The notes beneath the pieces are model-generated. The model searched no databases. It was not told the DNA's origin and worked only from the letters and a program-made list of their open reading frames with translations. DNA of 64,000 nt from a virus (taxonomy: Duplodnaviria; Caudoviricetes): the IMG/VR virus record IMGVR_UViG_3300033121_001571. The stretch is one strand, 5' to 3'. Positions 39,717-58,333 of this stretch are shown in pieces. Both the position numbers and the translations under genes were made by a program. Every line of letters starts with the position of its first letter. Positions within the stretch are counted from its first letter, which is position 1.

Positions 39717-39902
39717 CTAACTCTTCTTGCTGTAAAGATCTCTGTGCCAACCTTCACCCTTGAGTAAAAAACTAGTTCCTCCAGAGATGAGTCTTTTCAG
39801 TTTTTGACCACATTTTTCACAATATCGATCAGAATCATCACTTATGTTGTGTTCTATCTCTGTGACCGTCTGACAACTCTTACACTCGTACTCGTAGATC
39901 AC
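39717..39902 (-). CDS. FmdB-family zinc-ribbon protein
   Basis: IYEYECKSC...CEKCG..LKRLIS...F.LKGEGW. Confidence 0.85.
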   Translation of the reverse strand: MIYEYECKSCQTVTEIEHNISDDSDRYCEKCGQKLKRLISGGTSFLLKGEGWHRDLYSKKS

Positions 39903-40942
39903 TCGTTTACCTCTTTTAACTTCCACGTCGTGGTGGAGCACCCAAAATTGTTTCTCTCGACCTCTGCGAGGTGCAGATTGTATAGATTCACGTTTGATTT
40001 ATCTGAGAATCCCCACACGCTAAGTCGAACTGGTTTCGCGCCGAGACCGAGTGCAGATATGACAGCATAACTCTTTTTGTTCTTTGTCATTTTGATCTCT
40101 AAAGACGTGGGAACAAACCAAACAATGTTCTTGTCACCTTCTTCAAGGGTCTCAATCGGATTGATCTCTTTTGTCTCTAGCTTAGCTAACATCTGTGGGC
40201 TGACAACAGATGTCACGTCAAAACTTCCAAATAACTCGATCTGAAACTGTGCTTGTTCTACTTTTGTCCACTCTGGAACGTTATCTCTGTAATATTCAGC
40301 TAACTCTCTCATTCTCTCCACACCAGCATACGGATTCTTTTTTGGCGATTTCTTTATCTCGTCGTTGTGTTCAATCAACACCTTGAATGCTTGGTGCCAA
40401 TTGCTGAATAATTTTCCTTGGCCCACCGCATCAAGAGAACCCAAAGCTTTTATCTTGATCAGAGTCTCTAAGACTCTTTTATTGAACTTTGAGTGTCTCC
40501 ACGTGCCGTCAGAGTTGTACAGCATGTCTTCTATATTTTTGTACGGTCTGTTCTGCAAGATCTCTTGCACAGCCGCTTCGCCGATACTCTTACAAGAGTA
40601 AAATGACGGCATGAACTTTTTCCCTGGAAGCACTGTCCATTCGTCTGAAGCATAGTTGACATCAATCTGAGCTATGTCGTAGCCCAATTGTTTGATCTCT
40701 GAAAATGCTACTGCTTTCTTTTCAGGACTGTTTAACATAGACTCAACATACGCAGTCAACCACTCCTTTTCAAAGTACGTCATCAACCACGCACACCAGT
40801 AACTGTCGATCGCATAAGCAACTGCGTGACTGTTTGAAGTCAGAACACCATTTGCTAAATAGAACTGGTGATCTGGGTGATCAACTTCAAGATCATACGT
40901 TTGGTGTTTTCCGATGGGGGTTATTGATTTGATGTTACTCAT
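39899..40942 (-). CDS. dnaE: DnaE fragment 5: IntC3 (40832-40942, 37 aa, ends Ser-Asn) plus C-terminal extein
   Basis: MSNIKSI...TYDLEV..PDHQFYLANGVLTSN|SHAVAYA; completes the conserved YGFNK-SHA motif. Confidence 0.95.
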   Translation of the reverse strand: MSNIKSITPIGKHQTYDLEVDHPDHQFYLANGVLTSNSHAVAYAIDSYWCAWLMTYFEKEWLTAYVESMLNSPEKKAVAFSEIKQLGYDIAQIDVNYASDEWTVLPGKKFMPSFYSCKSIGEAAVQEILQNRPYKNIEDMLYNSDGTWRHSKFNKRVLETLIKIKALGSLDAVGQGKLFSNWHQAFKVLIEHNDEIKKSPKKNPYAGVERMRELAEYYRDNVPEWTKVEQAQFQIELFGSFDVTSVVSPQMLAKLETKEINPIETLEEGDKNIVWFVPTSLEIKMTKNKKSYAVISALGLGAKPVRLSVWGFSDKSNVNLYNLHLAEVERNNFGCSTTTWKLKEVNE

Positions 40943-41303: not shown

Positions 41304-42305
41304 TTAATCTCTATAAGAATTTTTACTTTGAGCTCTTTTTGCTGCATCATTAGCAGCTTCTTCCGCTAACTTAGTGCCCCACTCTTCTTGGATACTGTCT
41401 CCAAGAACTTGCCCTTCATCAGTAAGGAAAATAAAATCACCTTCTCTGTAAACAAGACCAGAGTCAATAGCCTTTATCATCATATTGGTAAAATCCAAAA
41501 ATGCATTATGTTTAATTGTTTCGTGTTTTTCAATTTCTCTTACTTGAAGATATAGTTCTTCTTCATTATCAACGCCGTTAACGGACATCAGATATGGTAT
41601 GATCTTTTCATAGCGACTTTGTAAGTTAAGAACTTCTTCCATTGTCTGTGCAATTAAACGACCTTCATCATTTAAATCATAAATAGTGTGTTTTCCTTTT
41701 CTACCAACTGGCTCTATGTATGGTTCAAGAAATCCATACCATAATTCAGTATCACGCATCTTAAAACCAAAATGATGAAATCCATTAAATTCTTTTTCTT
41801 TTTTATACACTTCAGGTAGAGTCATGGGTCCAAATTGACTAATTATGTATAAAGGTATTTGTTCTATACTAGAATGTGTATTTACAGTCTTGGGTGTTGG
41901 CGGTTTGTTAGTTCCAATTTTTCTGATGCTAGCAAGATCGATCAGATGTCCCTTAGCAGACATACGTTCTGTTCTAAGAAATTTTTCATAATCACGCTGG
42001 TTACAACTAATATTGTTTACAATCTGCCACATAATTGAATGGTTTTTACTTTGATCTATGACTTTAACAAACTGCATTTCAACTTTACCAAACAATGTCG
42101 ATCTAGTGTTGTGTATATCTACATTCTGAATGGAGTATATAAAATCTTGCTCTATGATAAATGGCCCTTTGTTTGCATATTCTGGTGTATTTACAATGAC
42201 AACATCATAATTTTTGATGTCAGACAACGATTTATAAGATGTCTCTTGCGATTTTTCAAACGCTTCTGAGATTAGCTTCCTGATCTGACCAATTGTAGTG
42301 ATCAT
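41304..42305 (-). CDS. Leader-motif protein, paralogue A1, with tandem winged-helix-like repeats
   Basis: MITTIGQIRKLISE; shares PVG.K..YDLN and LTDEGQVLGD..QE.WG with 42312. Confidence 0.75.
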   Translation of the reverse strand: MITTIGQIRKLISEAFEKSQETSYKSLSDIKNYDVVIVNTPEYANKGPFIIEQDFIYSIQNVDIHNTRSTLFGKVEMQFVKVIDQSKNHSIMWQIVNNISCNQRDYEKFLRTERMSAKGHLIDLASIRKIGTNKPPTPKTVNTHSSIEQIPLYIISQFGPMTLPEVYKKEKEFNGFHHFGFKMRDTELWYGFLEPYIEPVGRKGKHTIYDLNDEGRLIAQTMEEVLNLQSRYEKIIPYLMSVNGVDNEEELYLQVREIEKHETIKHNAFLDFTNMMIKAIDSGLVYREGDFIFLTDEGQVLGDSIQEEWGTKLAEEAANDAAKRAQSKNSYRD

Positions 42306-42311
42306 TTGTTG

Positions 42312-43307
42312 TTAAATACCCTTTGCTGTCTGTGCTAGAACGTATCCCCACAACTCCTGCGCTTTATCTCCAAGAACTTGTCCTTCATCAGTCAAGTGAT
42401 AGACTTCATCTTCATCTTCATATATGAGACCAGATTTTATAGCTTTACTGATAGCTTTGTTTAGAGACACTATGTTGAATTTTCTAAATGCAATAAATCT
42501 AGCTTGAGTATCTAATAGATCAACTTTCATTGGACCGTTGACAGACAACAAGTAAGGAATTATCAATGAAGCTCTCTCTTCAACAGACAGAGCGGTAGAG
42601 ATTGAGTTATTAGAATTTATTGGTGAAGAGTTCAGATCGTAAACAACTTCTCCGTCTTTTTTACCAACTGGTTGAAGAACATCAGTAACATACTGAAGAT
42701 TTTCATGTCGATCACCAAACCACACGTCAATAAATCCTTCATCATAAGCAGAATACTTGCCTTCAAATTCTTGAACTTTTTCCATGATCTCTCTTGCAGT
42801 CATAGGTCCATTTTGTTTGACAACATACGATATAATGTCCAACATATGACCATCAAAACTTAACTTTTGTGTTCTTGTCTCTTGGTTTCCAACCTTGATC
42901 ACATCTGATATGTCAAAAAAAGCGGACACAGTTTCTGACTCTGACGAAAACAGATCATCATACAACTCTCCAGCGCTAACGTTTTCACAAACATAACAGC
43001 GTCTGATCCTACCATTTTTGATGTTTTTTATCTGCAGCGTAAAACACTTAACTACAGGTTGTTTGCGTTGTGACTTGTTTTTGAAAACAAAATAAGAAGG
43101 TTGGTCGCCATCAGTTTCTATGTCAAGAAACACTTTACGTGATGTGTTGACAACAAACACATCATCTTTGTCAATATTGAGTCTTGTTTGTTTGAACTTG
43201 ATAAGATCTCCGTTCTTAATGTCAAACACAGATCTGTATGTTGTTTCACTCTGGTTACTCAAAGCCTCAGAAATCAATTTTCTTAATTGACCAAGAGAAG
43301 TTATCAC
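42312..43307 (-). CDS. Leader-motif protein, paralogue A2
   Basis: MITSLGQLRKLISE; ACTATTTA box 5 nt upstream. Confidence 0.75.
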   Translation of the reverse strand: MITSLGQLRKLISEALSNQSETTYRSVFDIKNGDLIKFKQTRLNIDKDDVFVVNTSRKVFLDIETDGDQPSYFVFKNKSQRKQPVVKCFTLQIKNIKNGRIRRCYVCENVSAGELYDDLFSSESETVSAFFDISDVIKVGNQETRTQKLSFDGHMLDIISYVVKQNGPMTAREIMEKVQEFEGKYSAYDEGFIDVWFGDRHENLQYVTDVLQPVGKKDGEVVYDLNSSPINSNNSISTALSVEERASLIIPYLLSVNGPMKVDLLDTQARFIAFRKFNIVSLNKAISKAIKSGLIYEDEDEVYHLTDEGQVLGDKAQELWGYVLAQTAKGI

Positions 43308-43849: not shown

Positions 43850-44607
43850 GTAGTTTTGATCACACTCTCTCTTGGTTTCATAAGATTGTAGAGAACTTGT
43901 TCTACGTGTTTGAACAAATCCCTGTCAAATCCACACTCTCCTTGAAAGACTCTCAACGCAGAATCAATGTTTAAAGCACGGTGAGTCTTCGGTTGCAAAC
44001 TTCGAAAACGGATGATGCTGTTCAGACAGTGCCTTGCTAAGTCTGGATCATGGGACCTTTCAATCTCTCTGCAGGCACGTTGTGCAAAAAACTCTATCTG
44101 TTGATTGTGTTCAGGTAAAAAACTCATATTTTTGCACCTTGTGATACAGTTCAACGCTTCTTCTCGCACCACTTCTACGTCTGAAGCGAGCGCGCTCACA
44201 AAAAACTCTCCAACAGCTACTTCAAAAAACGGAAGAACATCGATAAACGGATCTAGATTTCCGCAACACATGACATTTAATTGAACACCGTAATCAATTG
44301 GTGTGGGAGACGCAAACAAGAACAAAAAACTATTTTGATCAACTTTAACGTATTGATACATTGTAAACGCTAGATACGACAGCAAACCTATGTCTTTCCA
44401 ACCTGTTTTCACTAAGTGACTAAAGATAACGTAAGGCCACTCATCAAGTCTACGATTTTTACCAACAAAACACTTTAGTGCTTCTGTTGATCTGTTCTGA
44501 TTTGAAAGGTGCTCTGACCACTCTTTGCAGAGCTTATTGTATGTTTTTTCGCTGAAGATCATTGTTGAGTTAAGCAGAGATCTAAGTTGTCTGAAGACAT
44601 ACACCAA
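43846..44607 (-). CDS. Hypothetical protein
   Basis: Long ORF; no recognised motif. Confidence 0.6.
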   Translation of the reverse strand: MVYVFRQLRSLLNSTMIFSEKTYNKLCKEWSEHLSNQNRSTEALKCFVGKNRRLDEWPYVIFSHLVKTGWKDIGLLSYLAFTMYQYVKVDQNSFLFLFASPTPIDYGVQLNVMCCGNLDPFIDVLPFFEVAVGEFFVSALASDVEVVREEALNCITRCKNMSFLPEHNQQIEFFAQRACREIERSHDPDLARHCLNSIIRFRSLQPKTHRALNIDSALRVFQGECGFDRDLFKHVEQVLYNLMKPRESVIKTT

Positions 44608-45701
44608 TCACTACAATAGTTATTTCCTTCACCACACGCAATAAAAGTACCTGGAATGACTTTTGAACAGTATGAATTTCCTAACTTAAACACACCAGGA
44701 CTTGGATTTTTCAAAATCTTGAACAGATTGTATATTACACGATCACTGAACTTACCTCCTTCTTTGTATGAGAATTGATCGTATGATATACGAATAAGGG
44801 TCCATCCGTGTTGCACTATGTGTTCATCAAGCAATCGATCCATATTCCTAACATCATTAAAAACTTTTTCTCCTTTTATGCGAGGTTCAAAATGAATTAT
44901 ACCATCAAATTCAACATAAATACGTGCTGTTTTATCAGCAATATCAACTTGTTTTCGATGTGATTTATTTGTAAATACACTTGATTTAACAATCTGATTA
45001 TGTTTGAATTCATAAGGACTAGCGGTTAACAACAACTCAAATAACATTAACTCTGGTTTACTGTGCCATTTAGAATGTGCGGCGAGGGTGCATTTTTCAT
45101 AGAACTCATCAAAATGAGTATTACGCCAAGCTGTCAGACGTGCTGTTCGAATTGCAAGGATCTCTGGTCGAGCTGACGTTTTTTTTGCAGTGATGCGTGA
45201 TAGTTCGCGGCCCCTTGGAGACGAATTTCTTGATGCCATAGCTTCAGCTCGGCGTTTACGTTCATTTGGATTCGCCATAACAGCAGTAGAAACTGCAACA
45301 CTCATCTTAGCCTTATATGCAGTCAAATCGTCGCCACGTTCTTTTGCACGCTTCAACCATGCAAAATTCTGACCACGTTTCTTAAACGCAAGCTGTGTAG
45401 TAAGCGAAGTGAGCTCAGCGTCTGGATATGTAGTTATGTACTCCTTCTTGCTCATGTCATGGACTTGTGTCAAGTGTTTTGTAAGAGTACGACCTATAAA
45501 TCCGCAAATTCGACAAGTAACTGTGTCGTTGGCTGAAAGAACAGTTACTAGACACGCTTTTACGTGTTTTTCGTAGGGTCGCTGGTAAGAAAAGTTCTTA
45601 CCGCATCGGTCACAACGATATTGTATCCCTTTTCGTTGATCATCCACAATGGTAGCATCTCTCCCGTTTCCTTCGTCCTGAATTTGTGATTCCACGTGCA
45701 C
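44559..45701 (-). mobile_element. Free-standing Zn-finger Vsr/DUF559-like homing endonuclease (HEN3), after IntN3
   Basis: CDRC..H..C and CRIC..H..H fingers; SKPE..VDIA..IYVEFDG..H..D..GWTLIRI. Confidence 0.85.
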
Positions 45702-46282
45702 TTTACCTTTTCTCCAGTAGTGAGCTCTACTTCAACTAAGTCGAGAACACCGTGATCATGTTTCATGATCACGGGAATAATAATGTCATTTCCTGAAATC
45801 TCGTCTCTAGATCTGACTAGATCATTAGGGCAAACATCTTTTAACAACTTAGTCTCTCTGTAAGAGCCATCAAAATTATATATATTCAGAGGTTGTAAAA
45901 AGTACAAACTTTTATTGAAACCGTACCCAGCGAAATATAAGATCTTATCGTAAAGGTTGTTAGCAACATCAGCAGTGTAACCGTTCTTTATGCATCCTTG
46001 AACAAAGCTATCTCGCGTTTCTTGTGCAGCCTTCTTCGCCGCTTCACCGCCCGAGATGCTGCGCTTCATGATGGCGCGGCGAACCTCGTCACACTTGTCC
46101 TTCGGGAAGCCGGCCACCTTCTCGGCCAGTTCCATCACCTGCTCCTGAAAAATTATACAGTTGTGCACCAGAAGGCCATTTGCGAAGAAATTGTGGTTCT
46201 TCTTGACCTGGATGTCGTACACGGGCTGTGCAGGAGCACGCTTGATTGCACGGATCTTGATGGGAACTACATCAGGCATCAT
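45560..46282 (-). CDS. dnaE: DnaE fragment 4: IntC2 (46160-46282), 83-aa extein, IntN3 (45563-45910, starts Ser)
   Basis: VYDIQV..NHNFFANGLLVHN|CIIFQEQ...YGFNK|SLYF...VKCTWNHKF. Confidence 0.93.
   Translation of the reverse strand: MMPDVVPIKIRAIKRAPAQPVYDIQVKKNHNFFANGLLVHNCIIFQEQVMELAEKVAGFPKDKCDEVRRAIMKRSISGGEAAKKAAQETRDSFVQGCIKNGYTADVANNLYDKILYFAGYGFNKSLYFLQPLNIYNFDGSYRETKLLKDVCPNDLVRSRDEISGNDIIIPVIMKHDHGVLDLVEVELTTGEKVKCTWNHKFRTKETGEMLPLWMINEKGYNIVVTDAVRTFLTSDPTKNT
45999..46030. repeat. 32-bp direct repeat, copy 1
   Basis: tgaacaaagctatctcgcgtttcttgtgcagc, identical at 47429-47460. Confidence 0.95.
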
Positions 46283-47428
46283 CCACCTCGACAATATCGA
46301 ACTCATCGAAGCAACACACTTCTTGGTCGAGCTCGCCGCCTTTCAAACCCTCGAAAAGACCCGAACCCGTGCTACGATTGTAGAACATCGCATCATTGTT
46401 ACGATAATCGTCAATGAGTTTGACTTCAGTCCCAGCGTCGAACCATTCATCGGGACGAGAGATGTATTTGACACGCTTAACTGGTTGGAGAGGTGTAGAT
46501 GAAAAGAAGCCTTCCGCCCCATCACGCATCATCTTGACGTGGACAATTCTCTCGTTAAGATGATCTGCTTGCAGGCGTTCACCTTCGTCAACTAGCCTGA
46601 TCACATTGGGACATGCAGTCGTCTTCTCTACCCATAGTGGGTCAAGAGGCGACGGATGGTGTGGACACGCACGCCAGTCGTGTTGACGTTGACGCTCGAG
46701 CAGGCAAAACACACCCGTCAAGTGCGTGTAACAAACAACGTAATCCCTCATCATTCACACTCCTGTTCGCGATGCATTAAGCACGCAGCACATATATCGC
46801 GGCCAGGTGTTGACGTCCAAAATTGCTCGTGGCAATCAACACACGTTTGCGTTGGGCTGATGGACAACTTCGTTGCTACGCCGTGTGATGACATAGAACG
46901 AGACAACGCATCAGCGTCCAGCACAACGCGACGTGGGTTGATTTTCATTGCCAACGAACTTGCACATAGTTGACACACCGGTCCATGGACGTCCAACACA
47001 CGAGGACCATGATACTCAAGTTCCATATCGTTGCCCACTTCTTCATGGGCTCGAAACGTATCGAACCAATCGGCATAGGTGAGGTCCTCACGCTTAGCCA
47101 CTTCAGGATGTGACTTCAAGGTATTGATGAAATTCTTGAACGAGGTGAGCAGCTCTTCCTCGAAATCTTCGATCTTCATGCCTAAATTGTCCTCAAGTTG
47201 TGTGGGTAGTTCACAGCCTCAGACCCCCAGACGCGTCTCACCACATAACCTCGAGCCTCAGCCGCGCGGGTGAATGATTCATCGAGTCGATACTGTCGCT
47301 TCATCTTGGACGTCAGTTCGTGCTTTTCTGGATTGCCGTGCCAGTAGTCGCCATCGAACTCTACGAGAATGTTCTCATTTGGAACGTAGAAATCGAACTC
47401 ATGGTTGATGCCTTCAACGTGGCATCTG
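46031..47428. mobile_element. GC-rich foreign insertion (about 1.4 kb) from a related phage's dnaE locus
   Basis: Bounded by the 32-bp repeats; 46081-46140 is 36/60 G+C versus 23/60 for the largely synonymous native segment 47521-47580. Confidence 0.75.
46272..47179 (-). CDS. Two hypothetical ORFs within the GC-rich insert (46272-46754, 46751-47179)
   Basis: Coupled ORFs; Cys-rich C-terminus in 46751. Confidence 0.6.
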
Positions 47429-47712
47429 TGAACAAAGCTATCTCGCGTTTCTTGTGCAGCTTTCTTTGCAGCCTCGCCGCCAGAGATGCTTCGTTTCATG
47501 ATAGCTCTGCGAACTTCGTCACACTTATCTTTTGGAAAACCCGCAACTTTTTCTGCGAGTTCCATTACGCTTTCTTGAAATATCAAACAATTATGAACTA
47601 AAATAGAATTTGCAAAAAAATTACCATTCTTCTTGATTTGAAGATCGTAAACGGGTTGTGAAGGAACACGTTTGACCGCACGGATTTTGACGGGAACTAC
47701 GTTAGACATCAC
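47182..47712 (-). CDS. Chimeric ORF: IntC2' (47590-47712), about 53 aa of DnaE extein, then the C-terminal part of a Vsr-like endonuclease
   Basis: VYDLQI..NFFANSILVHN|CLIFQES...ETRDSFV then FDFYVP..ILVEFDGDYWHG..D..GYVVRRVW. Confidence 0.85.
   Translation of the reverse strand: MMSNVVPVKIRAVKRVPSQPVYDLQIKKNGNFFANSILVHNCLIFQESVMELAEKVAGFPKDKCDEVRRAIMKRSISGGEAAKKAAQETRDSFVHRCHVEGINHEFDFYVPNENILVEFDGDYWHGNPEKHELTSKMKRQYRLDESFTRAAEARGYVVRRVWGSEAVNYPHNLRTI
47429..47460. repeat. 32-bp direct repeat, copy 2
   Basis: Identical to 45999-46030. Confidence 0.95.
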
Positions 47713-47997
47713 TTGCCTTGTTGATCTGAAACTTTGATCTGAAACTCTTCGACGTTTGACTCATCTGCGCTATCTTCAACACAAAGCACTCGAAGATAAC
47801 GAATTGCACACGCTAAGAACTGTTCAGGAACCAAATTTGGTGTTTCGTGTTTTGGTACTATCTCTCTTGGAGAAAAAGTCTCTTCCACAGAGTCACACCA
47901 ATGTAAGATACCAGTTAGAGTGTTTGTTTTTACCATAAACACAAAACTACTGCACAGATACTTTCTGTTCACTTAAGTTTTAAGATCTAAACAGAGA

Positions 47998-48525
47998 TCA
48001 CAGATCAATAATGATATATTTGTCATTTCTTTTCATGACATTATCGCTAGATATGTCCCCACGCATTTTCACATAGATTCTCAAAAAATCTTTGAGATCA
48101 GAATCGGGCAGAGACTCTACGCTTTCTGGGTTGCTAACAACTTCATCTATGATGAATTTTTCATCTCTTGTCAGTTGATCTAACTTTTCCATCACAGCAT
48201 ACACTGCATAAACAATGTTATCACCCACTTCTTCATCATATCCTTTTAACTTGCCCACTTCAAAAATTTTCACAAATAGTTCAAAATCAGGAATAGACTT
48301 TAGTTTATTCAAATGATAATCAACGCCATCGCTGTCTGGAAACATCTCATATGTTGGCACAAGTTTTATCACTTTTCCTGCTGAATATTCCATGATAACT
48401 CCTTCGTTACCAAACGCAACCACGTTTCCAACGTTTGGAGGGAGGATTCCGTCTCTTTTAAGTTTAGGAATGATTGTTTCAATAAAGTATGAATCGTAAA
48501 AACCTTGGTTTCTTTTTGTAAACAT
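47998..48525 (-). CDS. Minimal protein-kinase-like protein
   Basis: FGNEG, VIKL, YAVMEKL, GDISSDNVM, IIDL. Confidence 0.7.
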   Translation of the reverse strand: MFTKRNQGFYDSYFIETIIPKLKRDGILPPNVGNVVAFGNEGVIMEYSAGKVIKLVPTYEMFPDSDGVDYHLNKLKSIPDFELFVKIFEVGKLKGYDEEVGDNIVYAVYAVMEKLDQLTRDEKFIIDEVVSNPESVESLPDSDLKDFLRIYVKMRGDISSDNVMKRNDKYIIIDL

Positions 48526-48528
48526 CTT

Positions 48529-49413
48529 TTATCTGTTCCAATCTGATCTGTCTTTGATGTGTGCTTCAATCACAATGACTTTTCCCCTGATAGCATCTTC
48601 AAAATCTTTTCTTGCAGTTGAGACAATATTTTTTACATTAGAAAGAAGCTCATCTAACTTGGGATCACCCGTTTCATTATAGTGAAATCCTCGAGTGTCA
48701 AGAATAGCCTGAGTAACGATTTCTGATATTACGTCTACCCAGTTGTAATTTCTAAACGCATTAGTAACAGCTGATTTCATTGTCAGCGCAGACACAATTT
48801 TTGGCCAAAAATAAAATTTGAAATAATCGTTCATATATTCGTTTTTTTCATTTTTGAAAGCATCAATGAACATTTTGTTGATAACTTTCATATACTTTCC
48901 CATTACAGAAATATTTGAAGTTTCATCGATCATAGCGTGTATAATCATCCAAGGTGTAGAAAGAAATCCCTTTTGAAGATGTTCAACTAGTGGAACAAGG
49001 ATCGCAGCACCTTGTTTTCTTGCTTCTTCTAATTGAAGAATTCTGTTTGATGGAACTCCAAATCTAGCTAAAATACTAGCATCACTATATCTTTCACGCG
49101 TTCTATCAGATGTTCTTCCCCTGTTTGATGCCCACCATGTAAATGCTGGTACTACGTAGATTGGAACTGACAGGTTCTTGTATAATTTAATCGCACTGTT
49201 GTAAAAGTTTTTGTTGTCAAAAAATTTCTTGACTTCTTTTCTATCTTTTTCGACGTCAGCATCACTTGAATGATTCTTAGTTTGTAAGACATAGTCTGAT
49301 TTTGCATTAACAGTCCAATCTTCTTCTCCAGCTGGCTCAATTCCAGCTAAAGGAGCTTCTGAGATCACTGAAGATCTGATAAGAGATCGGAGTTCGCTAA
49401 GTTTGATTTTCAC
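48529..49413 (-). CDS. Leader-motif protein, paralogue B1
   Basis: (M)KIKLSELRSLIRSSVISE; TPWMIIHA; close paralogue of 50110. Confidence 0.8.
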   Translation of the reverse strand: MKIKLSELRSLIRSSVISEAPLAGIEPAGEEDWTVNAKSDYVLQTKNHSSDADVEKDRKEVKKFFDNKNFYNSAIKLYKNLSVPIYVVPAFTWWASNRGRTSDRTRERYSDASILARFGVPSNRILQLEEARKQGAAILVPLVEHLQKGFLSTPWMIIHAMIDETSNISVMGKYMKVINKMFIDAFKNEKNEYMNDYFKFYFWPKIVSALTMKSAVTNAFRNYNWVDVISEIVTQAILDTRGFHYNETGDPKLDELLSNVKNIVSTARKDFEDAIRGKVIVIEAHIKDRSDWNR

Positions 49414-49432
49414 AATCACTAAATATCAACAC
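49312..49432. repeat. 121-bp exact direct repeat, copy 1
   Basis: Identical to 50896-51016; covers the TANTTA box, the leader coding region and the last codons of IntN2. Confidence 0.9.
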
Positions 49433-50074
49433 TTCATCACTGTCTGTCAAAGACCCAGCGTTTACCCACCCACGGTTCTTTGTCATGACTAAGTGGTCTT
49501 CAGTGACAGTGAGTCGTTTTCCGTCCTCTAACTCTATCTCGATCACGTCTCTTACACCGTTCGACACAGCAGCTACAACCACGTCACTCTCTATTTCAGC
49601 AGATTCCTCGTTGTATGACGGGAGAGTGACGCCGACCATCTGCTTATCAACGATTTCCTTGATAGTGATCTCACCGTTGTCTGTCATCACTCTTGAGTCA
49701 CCAGTTAAGCAACTGTAAGTCTTCTCAAGAATCTTATTGATTCTATCGTCACCCCAGTCCATCTGCTTGTTGTTATTCTTAGCGTCAATATACAACTTGT
49801 CTACGTCAGCAGCAAGTGGGCCAGGACGATAGATCGAAGTCAGAGTCGCAATGTCAATGATGTTCTCTGGTTTTGCTTTGACAAACAGGCGCTGAGCGCC
49901 CTTGCCAGTGACTTGAAATATGCCAGCAAACTTTGCTTCTTCATAGACCTTATAGACTTCTGGATCTTCCAGATCCATCTTTGATGGATGCATGTGTTCG
50001 CTGTGCCACTCTTTGATCTCATCAAAAGAGATCTTATCATTTGCAACGTTGTTGACTGACTTTACTTTTGCCAC
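49397..50074 (-). CDS. dnaE: DnaE fragment 3: vestigial IntC strand, extein, IntN2 (49400-49711)
   Basis: AGIFQ, SIYRPGP, KTYS|CLTGDSRV...TVTEDH. Confidence 0.93.
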   Translation of the reverse strand: MAKVKSVNNVANDKISFDEIKEWHSEHMHPSKMDLEDPEVYKVYEEAKFAGIFQVTGKGAQRLFVKAKPENIIDIATLTSIYRPGPLAADVDKLYIDAKNNNKQMDWGDDRINKILEKTYSCLTGDSRVMTDNGEITIKEIVDKQMVGVTLPSYNEESAEIESDVVVAAVSNGVRDVIEIELEDGKRLTVTEDHLVMTKNRGWVNAGSLTDSDEVLIFSDCENQT

Positions 50075-50109
50075 AGCGACAGTCTACTGACTGAGCTAAT
50101 TCTTTACAC

Positions 50110-50997
50110 TTAGCCTTGAATATGAGCTTCAATCACAATGACTTTTCCTCTGATAGCATCTTCAAAATCTTTTCTTGCAGTTGAGACAAGATCACTTATC
50201 TTTGCTAAGAGACTATCGATCTCTTGATCACCAGTCTTGTTGTAATGAAATCCTCGAGTGTCAAGAATAGCTTGCGTAAGAATTTCAGCTGCAATATCAT
50301 ACAACGAACGACCCTTAAACTTATAAACTCTAGCTGATTTCATCGTCAGTGAAGAAATAACACCTGGAAGCAGGTGGTTAAAATACCTTTCTTGTTTCTT
50401 GCTCTTAATTTGACCGTCAAAATCTTCGCCTTCTAAAAATAGATAAACGATCTCACTTACATACTTTCCCATGACAGACGACTCTGTCGATTCATCGATC
50501 ATAGCGTGGATGATCATCCAGGGCGTAGAAAGAAATCCTTTCTCAAGATTCTCAACTAGTGGAACAAAGATCGCTGCGCCTTGTTTTCTTGCTTCTTCTA
50601 AAGCTACGATCTTTTCTGGAGGTACACCAAACCCAGCTAAAATACTAGCATCTTCACTTCTTTCATAAGTTCTCTTAATGCGTCCTCTATCATCAAATTT
50701 AGATCCTCGTCCTGCAGCAAACCATGTAAATGCTGGCACTACGTAGATTGGAACCGACAGGTTCTTATACAACTTAATCGCGCTGCTACGAAAATTTTCA
50801 TTGTTAAAGAATTTTTTGACTTCTTCTCTATCTTTTTGAACAGTTGGCACATCATAATTTTTGAATCGAGCAATAGTCTTAGAGTCCATACCTTTAGTCC
50901 AATCTTCTTCTCCAGCTGGCTCAATTCCAGCTAAAGGAGCTTCTGAGATCACTGAAGATCTGATAAGAGATCGGAGTTCGCTAAGTTTGATTTTCAC
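50110..50997 (-). CDS. Leader-motif protein, paralogue B2
   Basis: Same N- and C-termini as 48529. Confidence 0.8.
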   Translation of the reverse strand: MKIKLSELRSLIRSSVISEAPLAGIEPAGEEDWTKGMDSKTIARFKNYDVPTVQKDREEVKKFFNNENFRSSAIKLYKNLSVPIYVVPAFTWFAAGRGSKFDDRGRIKRTYERSEDASILAGFGVPPEKIVALEEARKQGAAIFVPLVENLEKGFLSTPWMIIHAMIDESTESSVMGKYVSEIVYLFLEGEDFDGQIKSKKQERYFNHLLPGVISSLTMKSARVYKFKGRSLYDIAAEILTQAILDTRGFHYNKTGDQEIDSLLAKISDLVSTARKDFEDAIRGKVIVIEAHIQG

Positions 50998-51016
50998 AAT
51001 CACTAAATATCAACAC
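50896..51016. repeat. 121-bp exact direct repeat, copy 2
   Basis: Identical to 49312-49432. Confidence 0.9.
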
Positions 51017-51040
51017 CAGCTTACAACGCGTACGCGTCGG

Positions 51041-53040
51041 TCACCAGTAACATGTACAGAACAAAGTGTTAACTCCTTCAATGTCTTTTTTTGAAAAAGA
51101 GTTATGGTGTAAAAAACTAACGAGTATATTTTTCTCTATGTCAAACACAAATTTCAATGTACTTTTTATTGGGTATGCAAAAAGGTTCGGAAATTTAGAA
51201 TTAAGTTCTCCCACGTACAAACCGAATATCTTTTCATTTTTGTCTAATAAAAGAGGTCTGTTGAAATTTGTTCTATGATAATAGACTCTTCCACAAGGAA
51301 GCACTCGAACAAGATTTCCAACTAAAAACTCATTTTTCATTTAGGAACTTTAAGTTTTCTTAGTAGAGTTATGGTGTGTTACGTAACAACTCATACAACA
51401 ACAATGAAGTGCGCTATAACATAGTTCATCACTGCACTGTATAAAATCAGATGTCACAAATTTGACAAGTTTTTTACTTAACAGATCAAACAAAATAACA
51501 CTAACAAAATTCACTGGTCTGTTAAACTTATAACTGTTTATATCTTTTCTGTGAAGATCTGTCACTGAGATCAAATAACCATCAAGATCTTGGTGATCAA
51601 GACTTGTGTCTTCTTCCTCTTTACAGATAGCGTTAACAGCACCGTGAGCAATTATTTTCACAACGGTGTTTTCTAAGCTCTTAGTTAGTATCATCTTCAT
51701 CTAAACACTTGTACTAGTGAGTGCTTTAAAATGAGATCAAAGAATTCACTAATGCTTTCGTTTCTTATCGAAGTGTTTTACAACACAACTTTTGCAGTAA
51801 CAAGTCCATTTCGATTGATCGCTAATAAAGTTTATGATAGAACCAGACGTTCTAAAGATAACAACTGATTTAACACAGACATCAAACATTGTAACTCTCA
51901 CAAAAAACTTGTGTGGATGGTTTGCAAATCTGTTACGATTAGGTAGATCAGACACTGAAATCACATAACCATAACAAATAGTTATGTTCTCTAAACTCTC
52001 ATTTTGTGTCTTTCTAAGAACTCTGACTCTACCATGTGGGTGAACTCTTATGAGAGTGTTAATTGTAGATGTAATGTTCTTAATCATTTTTAACGTTTTT
52101 CAAAACTAACGCTAATAAAAGATCTTACAACAAACGTTTGTGTACAGATCTATGCAATAAGAACAGCCACACCCAACAATGTTTTTATTGTTGTTGTGTG
52201 CATATCTCATAGCACTGATCAACTGAAATTCAATTAACAAATTTTCACTCAGATCAAAAATAGTGATCGCTGACTTTGTTTTAGACAGAGAACAAATTGA
52301 AACAACGATACCAAAAAATATCTGTCCACGAGGGAAAATTGACTTCTCACGAGAAACACCTTTTGAAATAAAGCCAGTTTCTCCAAAACAATGAGGAGCA
52401 AAAAATTTGAGATCACCAACTTGAGTCATTGACTACCTTTAAGGTATTGGCAAAACGCTTTTACAACTCAAACAAGTACACCTTAAAACATTGTTCACAG
52501 AAACAAGTTCACTCGGCGTAGAAAACTTCATAACGTTCATGTTCATAAATGAAAACATCGTGATCTTGTCTTGCGTTCGAGAAAGAACAAGACCAACGTG
52601 AATGAACGTTGGATTGTGTAAGTACAACGAATACCAAAGAGATAGATCGTGGGGTATTATCTGAATAATCTGTCCCACAGCAAAAACGTGTCCAAGCACT
52701 TTGGCGCTCAATGATTTGTGTGCCTCTACTAAATACTCATACACTCGAAACACTCACACTTAATCACGCTTAACACGTTATCATAAAGTGATTGTTCAGT
52801 TATCGAAAACTGCACTAACTTACCTAATTTGATGTCTAAAAAAACAACAAGTACCATACCCTCAGACTTCCACTCAGTGTTCAAAACAATACCAATTAAA
52901 GCTGAATAAGGATGAAGAGTAAATGTTTTAAACGTTTTTTCTCCAATGATATCAATCTCACTGTCGTGAGGATGAACTTTGATCACTTTAGCAATAATTC
53001 TATTTTTCACAATTTTCTCACATAGACAACGTTTTTGCAA
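51041..53040 (-). CDS. Tandem array of six divergent ~100-116 aa paralogues (PH...FD...CxCxxC)
   Basis: ORFs 51041, 51350, 51749, 52112, 52439, 52729 share V.PH(G/D), G.V.S, FD....LV.F and C-terminal CxC(xxC). Confidence 0.7.
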
Positions 53041-54827
53041 CCATAGATCTTAAATAACTTGTGTTCAAATGCTAGACTCTCTTGAGAAGCTATGTTTGGA
53101 ATAGAACGCACAAGAAAACGATCAAGTCTGTGGTGACAATCTGTCCACCAAAATCTCGGTTTTGTCTCGTGACTCACAACAAAACCTGAACTCAAATAAC
53201 CGTTACCAGAACCACCCAAACGTGTATCACGATATGTCATGATTCTGTCAAAAGAGTTTTCTTTAGCCCAAGTTGCGGCAGCGCTGATCAGTTTTGACAT
53301 TCCTCCCACAACTACCGTGTTCTTCAAAAAAGCAACTCTAGCAATCTCTAGAGTCTTATCACTCCATTTTTTGATCTGGTGTGGCTTTCTAACAGTCAGT
53401 GTTGCTACAGTCTCGCCATTTTCTGTCTCAAGAATAAATCCTTTTGAAGCTGGCACGTTACCATCGATGTGATTTTCAACAAGAAATTCCGCAACAGATG
53501 CTGGATGAACTGCACGTACTCTGAGCCTTCGAGCAAAGATCTTCTTTGCTTTTTGCAGTTTGACTCTGATCATGCTCTTGATGATCTCTCGCTTGGTGAG
53601 ATCTTGCCATTCGTCTTCAAACACATGTAACAAAGAAGTGTTTGTTGTAGAGGCTAGATCTGACTTTTTCTGGTGATACTCACTGTCTGATATCACAGCA
53701 TCAGAGTGCCAGTATAATCCATTACACTCAATCGCAAATCTCTGATCACTTGACAGTATGTCTAGCTCTAACGGAGCTATTCGTTTTCGATCATTAAGCG
53801 TTGCTCCCGGATCGAACGTCAAGACGTATTCATAGATCTCACTCTGCCACCTTGAAATGACACGTGGATTGCAAGTTGAACACAGCTTTCCCTTACATAG
53901 AGATGACAGTTTTACTTGACAAGTCTCTCCGCACTCTTTACAAGAGACAACAATAAGACTTTGAAATCCAGCAACTTCATATGAATCAACATTCCATTTA
54001 TCTTTCACCGATTCAAGTCTCTCAGCGATCATCTCATGAGTGATTCTAAACGGTGAATTCACTCCCAACTCTATGAGTCTTTTTCTTGTCTGAATTATCT
54101 GTTGTTTGACTCTGTCAGCACAAGCTTTGTGTACCCAGTGACTGGATTTGACACTCTCACTGAGGTTTTCAGAACGTCTCTTTATTCTATCATCAGTCTC
54201 AGACGTTTGTCCGTGTTGAGTCCAGTGCTTTTCTTTCTTCCATTTTTCTGTGAGTGTCTTAGATATCTGAACAGCCGCTTGAGCTACTGAAGCACTGTTT
54301 TCTTTCGTCTGCCCAGAGCGCCAGTGACCGTTCTTTTTTATGAAATCTCTGCACTTTGTTGCAGCGATTCTCACAGACTCGCTCGTCTGTTCTGTCAGAC
54401 CCTTGTTCCAAGCTGGAGTGTTATTTCGTTTTCTAGTTTCGGCTCCACGAAGCTGAGAGTTTTTCTTGCTACACTTTCCGCAGAGCCTCTCATAACCAGA
54501 CTGAAATGACAAGAACTTGACAGGCCCAAAACACTGAGTGCACGGTCCTGGGTGAGAGACAAACAACAAATAAGCATCTTCAGCTAAGACACTGTGAACT
54601 TTTGCTAAGTGAGCTCGAACACTGTTAAGACTTGCTTTCATCTGTTGAGAGCAGATCGGACACTTCGAAAGAAGTGATATCGTCGGAGGGCCTGAGGTCC
54701 CTCGCGAAAACTTTTCCTCTTGCGGTGATAACTTCTTGGTCTCCAAACATTCTTTTTGTTGATCCGTCTTCAAGACAGATCTCAATCCATCCTCGTCGTT
54801 GTCTTTCATCTTTGATGATGAGTTCAA
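53007..54827 (-). mobile_element. Large Zn-finger Vsr/DUF559-like homing endonuclease (HEN2) with GNAT-like C-terminal domain; true start uncertain
   Basis: CPIC..H..H finger, PAWNKGLT repeats, ELDI...AIECNGLYWHS, LLHVFEDEW, IFARRL. Confidence 0.85.
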
Positions 54828-55512
54828 TTGTTCTCTCTACCAGTCTAAGCGTTTCAAGGCCAAGCAGATCATATTTAATGAAATTTCCGATCGCCTCTAG
54901 ATGTTTATAATTTACTCCCTCTACCCAAGGACTCTGAGGTTCCCCTTTTGATGTGATAAGAGGCATCTTATCAGGAAGATCGTCAGCTATTAGCACTCCA
55001 CCCGCGTGACGACCCAAAGAACGACCCTGTTTGAACAAGACATTCATAGACTCACCCACTTCAGGGTGCTTGTCAATGAAGTCTTTGAAAGGCTTATCGT
55101 ACTTCAGAGCATCTTCATACGTGAGAACAAACAAGTTCTTGTCATCACCGTGCTTTGTTGTTGCTTTTCTGACGCTTTGTTCAACTGTCTTCGTGGCAGC
55201 ATTGACTTCTTCGAACGGTATGCCATAGAACTTGCTGAGATCTTTTAGAAGAGATTTGACTTTAAATGCGTTGACATTTGAGATCGGAACAACGTTTTCA
55301 TATCCAAAGAAATTTCTCAGCTGATCAAGCACGAGATCTCTGTTAGCAAGATCAGAATCGATATCGGGAGACCCAGAGTTATGCGTTAAAACCCAATTGG
55401 TGTTGTCTTGTGATATCCAAAATGTATGATTATTCTCAACTTCTATATCAATAAGACGTGTACTTTCTTCAACTATTTGAATCGATTCTATCTTAGCTGT
55501 GTTTGTTAACAA
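54625..55512 (-). CDS. dnaE: DnaE fragment 2 (catalytic palm): IntC1 (55378-55512), extein, vestigial IntN half (about 54628-54786)
   Basis: WVLTHN|SGSPDIDSD, GRHAGG, KYDLLGL. Confidence 0.95.
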   Translation of the reverse strand: MLTNTAKIESIQIVEESTRLIDIEVENNHTFWISQDNTNWVLTHNSGSPDIDSDLANRDLVLDQLRNFFGYENVVPISNVNAFKVKSLLKDLSKFYGIPFEEVNAATKTVEQSVRKATTKHGDDKNLFVLTYEDALKYDKPFKDFIDKHPEVGESMNVLFKQGRSLGRHAGGVLIADDLPDKMPLITSKGEPQSPWVEGVNYKHLEAIGNFIKYDLLGLETLRLVERTIELIIKDERQRRGWIEICLEDGSTKRMFGDQEVITARGKVFARDLRPSDDITSFEVSDLLSTDESKS

Positions 55513-56482
55513 GACTTTCCTTATGTTTAGAAATTAAATGTTTTGTATTCTTGTAATTACGGTTTTCTAAATTTGGAATTACCTTATAAAGACCTTCATT
55601 ACGTAATGAAGCATAAAAATCTTCCATATAGATAACATCTATAATAATTCCTTGTGCAATTAACAAATTGCGTATTTTCATATTAGAATTTAACAATTTT
55701 GAAAACAGTGAATCACTTTCTCTAACACCTTTTAATTCAATATAACGATTTTCATTGGGAAAGAAAAAATCAGGCGTATAACAAACATCCCTACCTTCAC
55801 TTGTTACATGAAAAGTTTTGCTTTCATAAAGCGGTACATTTGATTTATAGATACAATATCGATAAAAATCTGCCTCAAATGAACTTTTGAAATAAGGACT
55901 ATTCTCAATATCTAAACGCCATCCAGATCTACCATTTATATGGATTGCTATCATTCCTTTTGATTGAGCTTCAAAAGTACATTTTTTACTACAAAATCTC
56001 ATTTTATAACTCTGCTTAGTAGATTTTACTAAGCCACATACTTGGCACACACATTTTATTTTGTTTTCTTTACTCTTTTGCGTACATTTAGCACTACAAT
56101 ACTTTCTTTTTTGATTTTTTGATTCAAAAATCACATTACAATAATTACACGTCATTTGAACAATTGGATTCTTAGTTAGAGTCTTAGAAGTTTCTATTTT
56201 AGAACACGCTCTAGAACAAAATTTTCGCCCCAATTTAGATTGGGGCACAAAGTATTCTTTGTTACATAACAGACAATTTTTCATAAACCGACCTACAATA
56301 AAATTTCTAACGCTAGAGCGCTTTTGTTTGTTTTTAACTTGACACTCAGTAGAACAGTACATTCTAGCTAACTTGCTAGTTGAACCTTTACCCACGCCAG
56401 AGCACTCAATTTGAAATATTTTTTCACAATATTTACAAGTTTTCTTTACTATGATCATAGTGGTACGTATACAACAGATCAT
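55493..56482 (-). mobile_element. Multi-treble-clef Zn-finger PD-(D/E)XK homing endonuclease (HEN1) between IntN1 and IntC1
   Basis: Four CxxC..(F/Y)CS..C repeats; KSSFEA..YTPDFF..YIELKG; AT-rich (55621-55680 is 16/60 G+C). Confidence 0.87.
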
Positions 56483-58253: not shown

Positions 58254-58264
58254 GAGTTTGTGAA

Positions 58265-58293
58265 GATATACTGCTAGTAAGCAAACAGTTACA
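58265..58293 (-). promoter_or_regulatory. Promoter candidate for dnaE: TGTAAC-N17-TATATC
   Basis: Lies between the terminator and the dnaE start; same upstream element as 6171. Confidence 0.5.
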
Positions 58294-58300
58294 CAGCACC

Positions 58301-58333
58301 AAAACAAAAGGCAGGAACTGTATAGTTCCTGCC
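58301..58333 (-). terminator. Rho-independent terminator
   Basis: GGCAGGAACT-ATAC-AGTTCCTGCC followed by TTTTGTTTT on the minus strand. Confidence 0.85.

Follow-up and report, generated by a model that had tools for sequence, protein, structure and literature searches.

How a single N-intein comes to be matched by two C-intein halves, one heading a DNA polymerase fragment and the other running in frame into part of a nuclease, is the question raised by the dnaE locus described here. The window, that is, the whole stretch of DNA that was analysed, comprises 64,000 nt of a phage-like contig of ~284 kb, and a preliminary description of it had read the arrangement as possible alternative protein trans-splicing, yielding either the polymerase chain or a fusion to the nuclease. 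We consider it likely that the chimeric ORF is instead the scar of a nuclease-cassette insertion in a known fractured-gene system, a young relic without selected function, and that it is at most a tolerated competitor of IntC2A, the C-intein of the working gene.

A fractured dnaE locus with one IntN2 and two IntC2-bearing ORFs

The dnaE of the window is a "fractured gene" made up of five ORFs, with three split inteins and with endonuclease genes in the gaps; all features given below between 44559 and 50074 lie on the minus strand. DnaE fragment 3 (F3; 49397..50074), which holds the N part of the finger domain, ends in KTYS and is followed by IntN2 (Pfam DNA_pol3_finger, 7e-24, plus Intein_splicing/Hint). 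IntN2 (~49400-49711, with Cys1 at 49711) is 59-64% identical to the IntN2 of relatives and is present as a single copy alongside the two IntC2-bearing ORFs; a tblastn search of the window found no second full IntN2. The working gene for DnaE fragment 4 (F4; 45560..46306) consists of IntC2A (46160-46282, with its start ATG at 46282 or 46279), the copy A extein (~45911-46159), and IntN3 (~45563-45910, with block B TWNH), and retrieves Pfam Intein_splicing (2.6e-12) and DNA_pol3_finger (8e-09), in agreement with its earlier reading as DnaE plus IntN3. F3-IntN2 and IntC2A-F4 are on the same strand in one locus, in an order colinear with the intact dnaE of contigs L014-L026.

The small ORF u87 (47709..47972; 75-87 aa) belongs to no known family, and its TGA overlaps the ATG of the chimeric ORF as TGATG, the layout of translationally coupled genes. 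Two cassette ORFs, u142 (46751-47179) and u160 (46272-46754), lie within the insert described below; Pfam, PHROGs, and the ESM Atlas offered no usable clue to what they do. At intein 3, an intact zinc-finger and Vsr-like endonuclease gene (44559..45701; Pfam ROS_MUCR zinc finger) overlaps the 3' end of IntN3; its product matches phrog_559, annotated as an HNH endonuclease by PHROGs, and is 52-58% identical to the same-position ORF of L006, L009, and L011. This gene is an example of an undamaged cassette in the window's genome, and complete free-standing endonuclease genes are present at both inteins 1 and 3 (55493-56482 and 44559-45701, respectively). A promoter and terminator scan of 45400-51200 returned a number of sites not above that of shuffled sequence and nothing decisive. 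Among named phage genomes, no close relatives were found at the DNA level, and the protein-level matches were distant nuclease or HNH-type matches only.

The chimeric ORF and its comparison with the working copy

The chimeric ORF (47182..47712; 175-176 aa) consists of IntC2B (47590-47709), 53 extein codons running from CLIFQES to ETRDSFV (47431-47589), and the last 82 codons of a Vsr-like/EDxHD homing endonuclease followed by a stop (47185-47430). Translation probably begins at ATG 47709, for a product of 175 aa, the length annotated in other assemblies. After ETRDSFV it reads HRCHVEGINHEFDFYVP...VEFDGDYWHG, and the previously described in-frame switch into a Vsr-like core at this point was confirmed by the 79-86% identity of the nuclease part to the final 82 residues of proteins of 131 aa and 246 aa, which are named very-short-patch-repair endonuclease by JGI. 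Likewise, the observation that two ORFs begin with similar IntC sequences ending VHN/C and continue into nearly the same DnaE extein holds on the minus strand: the chimera and the F4 product share 83/101 identical residues by BLASTP (E 3e-61), Pfam finds Intein_splicing and DNA_pol3_finger in both 45560-46306 and 47182-47712, the IntC halves are 40-41 aa long and end in VHN followed by Cys+1, and the extein stretches, both ending in ETRDSFV, are identical at 51/53 positions. IntC2A and IntC2B are 71-73% identical, and a repeat finder paired 45992-46281 with 47422-47711 (290 nt, 77% identity). Third codon positions account for 46/65 differences between copies A and B, and dS between them is saturated (~2 in the IntC, undefined in the extein); their low dN goes back to the time before the insertion. 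The chimera carries 53 of ~84 extein codons and is without IntN3; the complete F4 gene stands at 45560-46306.

The chimera is free of stops and frameshifts, as had been stated. Its QES had been taken as a departure from a conserved QEQ, and we considered it as a mark of decay, but at least nine more distant relatives with a single copy (P0016, P0036, P0037, P0043, P0047, P0051, P0054, P0055, and P0058) have FQESVM as their ordinary sequence, and that reading was rejected. A structure model of the whole chimera is poor (pLDDT 53.8) and therefore says nothing on the folding of the remnant; within it, the nuclease segment has a pLDDT of 65-80 with strand/helix order as expected, and the DnaE helix ahead of the junction, which might stand in for the lost nuclease helix, has a pLDDT of 42-45, too low to judge such a replacement.

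A GC-rich insert between the two copies

A donor-derived, GC-rich insert of 1.4 kb (46031..47428) was delimited by identity to contig L006, by GC3, and by the gene order of relatives, and contains the 3' 246 nt of a nuclease gene plus its stop, u142, u160, IntC2A, and the first 42 extein codons. From 47442 to 45600 the window is 80% identical to L006 at the nucleotide level, with 85-93% identity over 46770-46050; other parts of dnaE are 68-73% identical, and downstream of ~46000 both the identity to L006 and the GC content fall. The background GC3 of the window is 0.35 +/- 0.06, which copy B resembles (IntC2B 0.32, extB 0.34), and that of the insert is 0.52-0.79 (nuclease part 0.61, u142 and u160 0.52, IntC2A 0.66, extA 0.79). 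Copy A has many relatives with 92-99% aa identity; copy B has none above 87%.

The insert has the gene order of the block found in L006, L007, and L010-L012, where F3-IntN2 is followed by a 246-aa C2H2-ZnF/Vsr-like ORF, an ORF of 140-142 aa, an ORF of 160 aa, and then IntC2-F4. The nuclease gene alone stands between IntN2 and IntC2 in L013 and L027, and dnaE is uninterrupted and intein-less in L014-L026. Among strains otherwise 99-100% identical, the nuclease-linked block differs by 6-27%. To judge from these comparisons, copies A and B did not arise by duplication within the window's genome.

Junctions and a proposed course of the insertion

A 32-bp direct repeat, GCTGCACAAGAAACGCGAGATAGCTTTGTTCA, is found at both ends of the insert. 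The left copy (47429..47460), an exact repeat, closes the resident-type extein of the chimera, and the right copy (45999..46030) lies inside the working F4 gene, where copy A changes from donor-type to resident-type sequence; as a mosaic, the F4 gene has donor-type sequence as far as 46031 and resident-type sequence from 46030 onward. These 32 nt are the same in copies A and B and unlike all ten relatives aligned, and an identical run of at least 30 nt had P ~0.008 by simulation. The last 7 nt of the left repeat, TTGTTCA, are a microhomology with the nuclease gene, and the match at the left junction extends to 12/14 nt in the same codon phase (D-S-F-V-Q in dnaE versus D-N-V-V-H in the nuclease gene); this shared phase accounts for the open frame of the chimera. 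A homing-endonuclease cut site near ETRDSFV was considered as a cause of the junctions; the endonuclease I-Bth0305I cuts next to its own insertion site (PMC3239194), whereas 159 nt separate the extein-nuclease junction from the point of intein insertion.

On this sequence evidence, the course of events was as follows. The resident lineage had the order IntN2 ... u296-u175-u87 ... IntC2B-F4-IntN3, and its IntC2B-F4 gene took up 1.4 kb of a mobile cassette whose source was a relative richer in GC; in its full form the cassette is made up of a ZnF-Vsr nuclease gene, u142, u160, IntC2A, and the start of the extein. On the left, dnaE was joined illegitimately to the nuclease gene at the TTGTTCA microhomology; on the right, a homologous switch back to resident sequence occurred 32 bp upstream of the left-join point, and this offset produced the 32-bp direct repeats. 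The imported IntC2A and 42 extein codons now head the working F4 gene, and the resident 5' end that was displaced, with IntC2B and 53 extein codons, kept its original start and reads in frame into the last 82 codons of the nuclease gene. The putative ancestral allele, u87 followed by full-length IntC2B-F4, was not found among 60 homologues and 20 u87-bearing contigs.

Occurrence across contigs and strains

The chimera arrangement was seen in contigs of at least 12 metagenome samples, in three cassette haplotypes, and the strain chimera from assembly that had been raised as a possibility is therefore excluded; five separately assembled contigs span both copies (the window, L001, L003, L057, and L059). 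An identical 75-aa u87 protein is encoded directly upstream of the chimera in 20 contigs, and the chimeric ORF is intact in every contig examined, with 175 aa in about a dozen assemblies. Its resident part shows 0-1 nt differences between strains, too little to detect selection, and since it differs by so little, there has been little time for the chimera to decay. The very young pseudogene that the preliminary description had allowed for comes close to our own reading, namely an insertion relic differing by 0-1 nt between strains. An ORF intact in all contigs is also what selection would give, a counterpoint to that reading.

Two candidate variants of the locus were rejected. P0006 (111 aa, contig L056) was tried as an independent breakpoint after ETRDSFV and proved to be an assembly chimera: L056 runs on after ETRDSFV into unrelated sequence of roughly 65% G+C, and L057 and L059 have the gene order of L056 but continue normally into resident genes. 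L063, in which a Fic gene precedes u87, was tried as an alternative allele; its match to the window covers just 48375 to 47508, after which the contig ends, and it is therefore silent on any such allele.

The nuclease remnant

The chimera aligns only with residues 161-246 of the 246-aa nuclease, equivalent to residues 50-131 of the 131-aa form, and no trace of the remaining nuclease sequence upstream of the matched part was found in the window. It keeps 82 of 131 or 246 nuclease codons; missing from it are the C2H2 zinc fingers, the N-S-x-A-E motif, which is nearly invariant, and helices 8-22 and 29-44. Both helices are present in a model of the full 131-aa form (pLDDT 78), the latter at pLDDT 86-91. 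For this model, that of the full-length relative P0013, the top fold matches in the PDB were to I-Bth0305I (3r3p, E 1.4e-3, prob 1.00) and to Vsr (1cw0, E 1.9e-3), with TM of only 0.41-0.54 over the matches; Pfam matches of the nuclease to Vsr, DUF559, and MTES_1575 are all below threshold, and a sequence search of the nuclease against solved structures returned nothing significant. D107, E118, D120, H125, and D144 (ORF numbering) are invariant in 14 to 19 family members and present in the chimera, and putatively correspond to Asp51, His69, and Asp97 of Vsr, per PMC2677866 and a by-eye alignment.

Between strains, the nuclease part shows seven synonymous and four non-synonymous codon changes and no disruption, which is better explained by recombination with intact alleles. 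With all core-invariant residues kept, the remnant may have residual nuclease or DNA-binding activity. As a homing enzyme it is probably inactive, because the zinc fingers and two domain helices are missing, and it is for this reason that we favor reading the chimera as a young relic without selected function.

Predicted pairing of IntC2B with IntN2

IntC2B keeps R14, D22, Q24, N28, N30, F31, N34, H39, N40, and C+1, all ten of which are invariant in 15 homologues, and has the block F Asp (VYD), block G VHN, and C+1 that are features of a class 1 split-intein C-fragment. The block F histidine (HNF motif), a position that we assigned here and equated with His F:13 of PMC4031507, is occupied by Gly in IntC2B; most relatives have His there, and P0003, P0016, and P0045 have Asn. 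This His assists Asn cyclization, yet is dispensable in some inteins (PMC4031507). A model of the IntN2-IntC2B complex scored 0.65 and the best control 0.00, with at least 90% contact agreement between runs and a partner pLDDT of at least 64; the mark used for such models is reached by 58/80 solved complexes and 2/110 mismatched pairs. The pass may reflect mere likeness, because split-intein complexes have been solved, and the model bears on docking and not on splicing chemistry.

The chimera is probably still translated, and its IntC2B, presumably the C-intein with which IntN2 co-evolved, has probably kept the ability to dock on IntN2. Because IntC2B keeps the invariant residues and is modelled to dock, competition for IntN2 appears physically possible. 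The physical premise of the alternative trans-splicing proposed earlier thus survives (one IntN2, two IntC2, the invariant residues, the complex model, and the TGATG overlap). Its adaptive part, the chimera as a decoy, a titrator, or a tethered nuclease, is unsupported: the chimera is explained by insertion and a microhomology join, and its nuclease is truncated.

Weighing of alternative explanations

If strains with and without the cassette had been merged at the repeat, the locus would be an assembly artefact; a 32-bp exact repeat could let a short-k assembler switch paths, and L056 breaks exactly at the repeat and enters unrelated sequence of roughly 65% G+C. We nonetheless regard this as extremely improbable, as besides the five separately assembled contigs containing both copies, intact nuclease genes have just 7-14 nt in common with the extein-nuclease junction, insufficient for a k-mer join, and the 32-bp resident-type stretch needed for the other join is found in 0/10 relatives aligned. 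An ordinary tandem duplication in the window's genome followed by divergence would fit two direct copies on the same strand, 1430 bp apart, but synonymous divergence is saturated, yet strains differ by <1%, GC3 is 0.34 in copy B versus 0.68-0.79 in copy A, copy A groups with the cassettes of other phages (92-99% aa identity), and the intervening DNA corresponds to the cassette that relatives carry; we give such an origin almost no credence.

The remaining alternatives concern what the chimera does. Adaptive alternative trans-splicing would have IntC2A and IntC2B both splice onto F3-IntN2, with the fusion or the sequestration of F3 used by the phage to titrate polymerase assembly, as a decoy against related co-infecting phages, or to tether a nuclease to the replisome. 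One IntN2 versus two IntC2 ORFs, the full set of invariant residues in an IntC2B co-evolved with the resident IntN2, the complex model (0.65 versus 0.00 for the control, possibly through likeness to solved split inteins), the nuclease motif residues still present, and an intact ORF with a stop/start overlap with u87, fixed in all contigs examined, are consistent with such a role. We hold it to be unlikely, as one insertion would fully explain the structure, the open frame follows from the codon phase that the microhomology shares, the nuclease part has lost its zinc fingers and two helices, and the block F His, which is His or Asn elsewhere, is Gly in IntC2B. Moreover, no such fusion was seen in other lineages: the best 150 matches of an exhaustive search have their top-scoring stretch in one half only, except for a few nuclease-type proteins of 28-34% identity, with a stretch running back into the helical extein part, and among 90% clusters the one to which the chimera belongs is alone in spanning the two halves. 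Also distinctly unlikely is that the chimera is expressed, that IntC2B competes with IntC2A such that part of F3 is spliced onto the extein-nuclease tail or stalled there as a branched intermediate because the block F His is Gly, and that this is exploited by the phage or the cassette; the effect would be throttled polymerase assembly or a poisoned polymerase in co-infecting relatives with a compatible IntN2. That the chimera still works as an endonuclease in altered form, with the IntC and extein replacing the lost N-terminal module, we judge very unlikely; the invariant core D, E-x-D, H, and D are kept, the modelled nuclease segment (pLDDT 65-80) has the expected strand/helix order, and none of the seven synonymous and four non-synonymous changes is disruptive, but recombination with intact alleles better explains those changes, helix 29-44 with the N-S-x-A-E motif and the entire zinc-finger region are absent, the DnaE helix that would replace the lost one is modelled at pLDDT ~42-45, and the catalytic domain of I-Bth0305I is accompanied by an N-terminal DNA-binding region (PMC3239194).

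Significance and relation to known systems

Fractured genes that combine split inteins with free-standing endonucleases have been recognized since 2009, and the later evolution of such loci is mostly a matter of models. Read as an insertion scar, the present locus would preserve both junctions of one event, a microhomology join and a homologous switch, by which a cassette would have repaired the gene it interrupted with its own IntC and stranded the old IntC on a nuclease stump. The cassette is also a hot spot of recombination among strains that otherwise match one another. Since the genome still encodes the cognate IntC and probably produces it, natural IntC competition should be measurable; for intein engineers, the IntN2/IntC2A/IntC2B trio would be a ready-made set of competing partners. 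If the competition reading is true, this would be the first natural case of two C-inteins versus one N-intein, that is, of alternative protein trans-splicing, and if the chimera is silent or inert, it would still be a clean example of homing-endonuclease traffic creating partial duplications and fusions in phage.

Dassa et al. 2009 (PMC2677866) described fractured genes in which split inteins have a free-standing homing endonuclease gene between their halves, including three metagenomic DnaE loci. As in those, the dnaE pieces of the window are colinear on one strand, with IntN ending the upstream ORF and IntC starting the downstream ORF, and Vsr-like endonuclease genes lie in the gaps; L006 and L010-L013 show the exact layout at intein 2. 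Unlike that layout, the intein 2 endonuclease of the window is reduced to its last 82 codons, fused to a displaced IntC-extein piece, and three unrelated ORFs are also in the intein 2 gap. The window locus looks like an intermediate of the endonuclease loss or uncoupling stage of the PMC2677866 model, reached via insertion and not simple decay.

The prototype EDxHD or Vsr-like homing endonuclease is I-Bth0305I (Taylor et al. 2011, PMC3239194). To judge from the fold matches, full-length relatives of the remnant may share the fold of its catalytic domain and of Vsr; they carry conserved acidic and His residues, and they join an N-terminal DNA-binding module to a C-terminal catalytic domain. In contrast to I-Bth0305I, the DNA-binding module of these relatives is made of C2H2 zinc fingers and not of NUMOD/HTH motifs, and in the chimera both this module and the beginning of the catalytic domain are missing. 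Homing endonuclease genes have also been found at phage genetic-exchange boundaries, together with nuclease domain shuffling (Barth, Dunham and Seed 2023, PMC10448857), and here too a nuclease-linked block differs in history from its flanks and part of a nuclease is joined to a piece of another gene. Unlike in that work, the exchanged block of the window lies inside an intein-split essential gene and replaces its IntC half, and the working polymerase therefore depends on a resident IntN and an imported IntC.

A resident IntN and an imported IntC in one polymerase amount to a natural cross-reactivity experiment. The cyanobacterial Npu and Ssp DnaE split inteins cross-react, a laboratory observation made between species. 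As with that pair, an IntN would here work with a non-cognate IntC of the same family; unlike it, the window encodes both IntC forms side by side in one genome.

Results

In the window, which is part of a contig of ~284 kb for which no close named phage genome was found, dnaE consists of five colinear pieces (F1 to F5) bordered by split-intein halves (IntN and IntC): F1-IntN1 (56433-58307), IntC1-F2 (54625-55512), F3-IntN2 (49397-50074), IntC2A-F4-IntN3 (45560-46306), and IntC3-F5 (39899-40942). All genes concerned are on the minus strand. Endonuclease-like ORFs lie behind IntN1 (55493-56482) and IntN3 (44559-45701). There is no IntC at the start of F3, and thus no working intein seems to be present at the F2/F3 break; in tblastn, the end of F2 (54667-54795) weakly resembles IntN2's distal half (E 0.04; 43% over 44 aa). 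F3-IntN2 is flanked by two ~296-aa paralogues (48529-49419 and 50110-51003) which begin with an exact 121-bp direct repeat (49312-49432 and 50896-51016) and are merely 72-80% identical outside it. Because this repeat contains the last 11 IntN2 codons, part of the IntN2 end also occurs upstream of 50110-51003. The IntN3-IntC3 gap is another with duplicated cargo, namely two neighbouring ~330-aa paralogous ORFs of no known family (41304-43307; ~28% identity by tblastn).

The preliminary description correctly recognized two similar ORFs in which an IntC is followed by a DnaE extein, one of them switching in frame to a nuclease. The products of ORF 45560-46306 (copy A, the working F4 gene) and ORF 47182-47712 (copy B, the chimera) are identical at 83 of 101 residues (E 3e-61), and a 290-nt DNA repeat (45992-46281 vs 47422-47711) is 77% identical. 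Per Pfam, both contain the C-terminal part of an intein splicing domain and then a DnaE finger domain. At the N-terminus of each product is a 40-41-residue IntC whose last residues are VHN; then come Cys+1 and 53 extein residues (51/53 identical) with ETRDSFV at their end. In copy A, more DnaE sequence and IntN3 come next. Copy B runs on in frame into HRCHVEGINHEFDFYVP...VEFDGDYWHG..., a segment that matches, at 79-86% identity, the final 82 residues of proteins annotated by JGI as very-short-patch-repair endonucleases. The replacement of QEQ by QES, previously read as loss of a conserved motif, is a normal variant of other lineages.

We compared the locus gene by gene with 47 related viral loci (IMG/VR viral contigs of 85-370 kb) and several metagenome contigs. 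The dnaE of L014-L026 is uninterrupted and intein-less, intein 2 alone is present in L012, L013, and L027, and several inteins are present in L006 and L009-L011. Every relative with intein 2 has a nuclease gene in the IntN2-IntC2 gap. In L006, L007, and L010-L012 this gap holds a 246-aa ORF with C2H2 zinc fingers and a Vsr-like domain, then a 140-142-aa ORF, then a 160-aa ORF; 131-aa forms of the nuclease also exist as stand-alone proteins. The window is the exception: IntN2 is followed by u296, u175, and u87 (ORFs named by aa length), which were found in none of the relatives compared, and then by the chimera, u142, u160, and IntC2A. In several phages, the nuclease gene in the IntN2-IntC2 gap is accompanied by u142, a Cys-rich ORF, and u160 (window 46272-47179; L006 8744-9645; L010 6101-7005; L012 6113-7005), both of which are conserved at 83-95% aa identity, versus 42-70% in the surrounding dnaE; neither has a family in Pfam, PHROGs, or ESM Atlas. 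L006 also has, a few kb downstream of dnaE, a gene for a large protein (14390-16741) to which Pfam gives faint Vault / MVP-shoulder matches.

The chimera aligns to residues 161-246 of the 246-aa nuclease, equivalent to residues 50-131 of the 131-aa form, and no trace of the first 160 residues of the longer protein was found anywhere in the window. In the predicted structure of the 131-aa form (mean pLDDT 78), helices 8-22 and 29-44 precede the sheet, and the second of these (pLDDT 86-91) bears the motif N-S-x-A-E, which is nearly invariant. Among solved structures, this model is matched best by the I-Bth0305I catalytic domain (E 1.4e-3) and E. coli Vsr (E 1.9e-3), with probability 1.00 and TM 0.41-0.54. 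The chimera has kept D, E-x-D, H, and D at the invariant positions. Both helices are missing from it, as are the zinc fingers; its nuclease part is, to judge by the sequence, a truncation. The chimera's own model is poor (mean pLDDT 53.8), with 65-80 in the nuclease segment and 42-45 in the DnaE helix before it.

Two explanations of the paired copies, a local duplication and an assembly artefact, are ruled out. Against duplication stand the GC3 contrast, the pattern of identity to L006, the saturated synonymous divergence, and the database matches. Background GC3 is 0.35 +/- 0.06 (32 long ORFs), and copy B lies at 0.32 in IntC2B and 0.34 in its extein. The imported block reaches 0.61 in the nuclease part, 0.52 in u142 and u160, 0.66 in IntC2A, and 0.79 in the first 42 extein codons of copy A, beyond which GC3 is 0.27 in the next 33 nt and 0.44 in the remaining gene. 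Identity to L006 is 85-93% over 46770-46050 versus 68-73% for other parts of dnaE, and it falls jointly with GC content at ~46000. Between the copies, synonymous divergence is saturated, with 46 of the 65 differences at third codon positions. Many database proteins are 92-99% identical to the first 93 residues of copy A, and no database protein outside copy B's own cluster exceeds 87% identity to copy B. By these sequence comparisons the copies are xenologues. As for the assembly, which the preliminary description had named as a possible source of a strain chimera, the chimera or its beginning lies behind u87 in contigs from at least 12 metagenome samples, and five contigs (the window, L001, L003, L057, and L059) span both copies. 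L056 (3772-4237) breaks right after ETRDSFV, at the end of a 32-bp repeat, into unrelated ~65% G+C sequence, which is probably a mis-join at the repeat, that is, an assembly chimera; L057 and L059 have the same gene order and continue normally into resident genes. This contig is the source of the 111-aa database protein P0006.

The junctions of the xenologous block indicate how the chimera arose. Copies B and A do not differ in the last 32 nt of the long repeat (47429-47460 and 45999-46030; simulated P ~0.008), which are of the AT-rich resident type, unlike all ten aligned relatives; copy A is therefore of the GC-richer donor type up to 46031 and resident from 46030 onward. At the other junction, the resident dnaE reads GATAGCTTTGTTCA, then AGG, the relatives' nuclease gene reads GATAACGTTGTTCA, then TAG, and this is the precise point of joining in the chimera. 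Here the two genes match at 12 of 14 nt, with an exact TTGTTCA, and share codon phase (D-S-F-V-Q vs D-N-V-V-H), which alone suffices to make the fusion in frame. The simplest reading is one event, by template switch or break repair, in which 1398 bp of a foreign cassette (46031-47428) would have entered the resident IntC2B-F4 gene with duplication of 32 bp. The insert would have supplied a new IntC2 and gene start, such that the essential gene stayed whole, and the old gene start would have been left joined to a stump of the nuclease gene. An origin of the chimera as an insertion scar is thus well supported.

Strains that are otherwise 99-100% identical were compared over this region (window 46025-47275 vs L001, L056, L057, and L059). 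They differ by 0-0.7% in resident parts, with 0-1 nt in IntC2B and its extein, versus 6-27%, in three haplotypes, from ~47275 or 46991 down to ~46025, which makes the imported block a hot spot of recombination. The variable block comprises part of the nuclease remnant, u142, u160, IntC2A, and the extein start, and its right edge never lies more than a few bases from the 32-bp repeat.

Discussion

Could the leftover IntC2B still act, given the earlier proposal of alternative trans-splicing from one IntN to two IntC partners? Its ATG at 47709 overlaps the u87 stop (TGATG), a layout of coupled genes, and it keeps all positions invariant in 15 IntC2 homologues. Relatives with an IntC2 that matches IntC2A at 90-95% identity have an IntN2 only 59-64% identical to the window's, so IntC2B is the co-evolved partner and IntC2A the newcomer. 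The IntN2-IntC2B complex model passes with a score of 0.65 (best control 0.00) at a mark reached by 58/80 solved complexes and 2/110 mismatched pairs, with at least 90% contact agreement between runs and partner pLDDT of at least 64, though this pass may reflect likeness only, because split-intein complexes have already been solved. The sole unusual IntC2B residue is Gly29, at the position of the block-F HNF histidine, where all relatives have His or Asn; this His aids Asn cyclization and is dispensable in some inteins (PMC4031507). It is physically plausible that the chimera would compete with IntC2A for F3. With so few differences between strains, the resident part is too young for selection to be visible, and no other protein with both IntC-extein and nuclease halves appeared in a 90%-cluster search or among the best 150 matches of an exhaustive search. 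We infer that the chimera is at present a young relic that is probably made and may compete mildly, and nothing points to a selected function.

The locus is chiefly of value as a dated snapshot of an invading cassette, and because it naturally combines one IntN with both a cognate and a non-cognate IntC. Its hot-spot cassette fits the broader view of nuclease genes as markers of the limits of genetic exchange between phages (PMC10448857). In its layout, dnaE corresponds to the "fractured gene" type described by Dassa et al. 2009 (PMC2677866). Their study had DnaE loci among its cases and defined the family of Vsr-like endonucleases, to which the name EDxHD was later given after I-Bth0305I (PMC3239194). 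The locus is a new variant inside these known fractured-gene systems.
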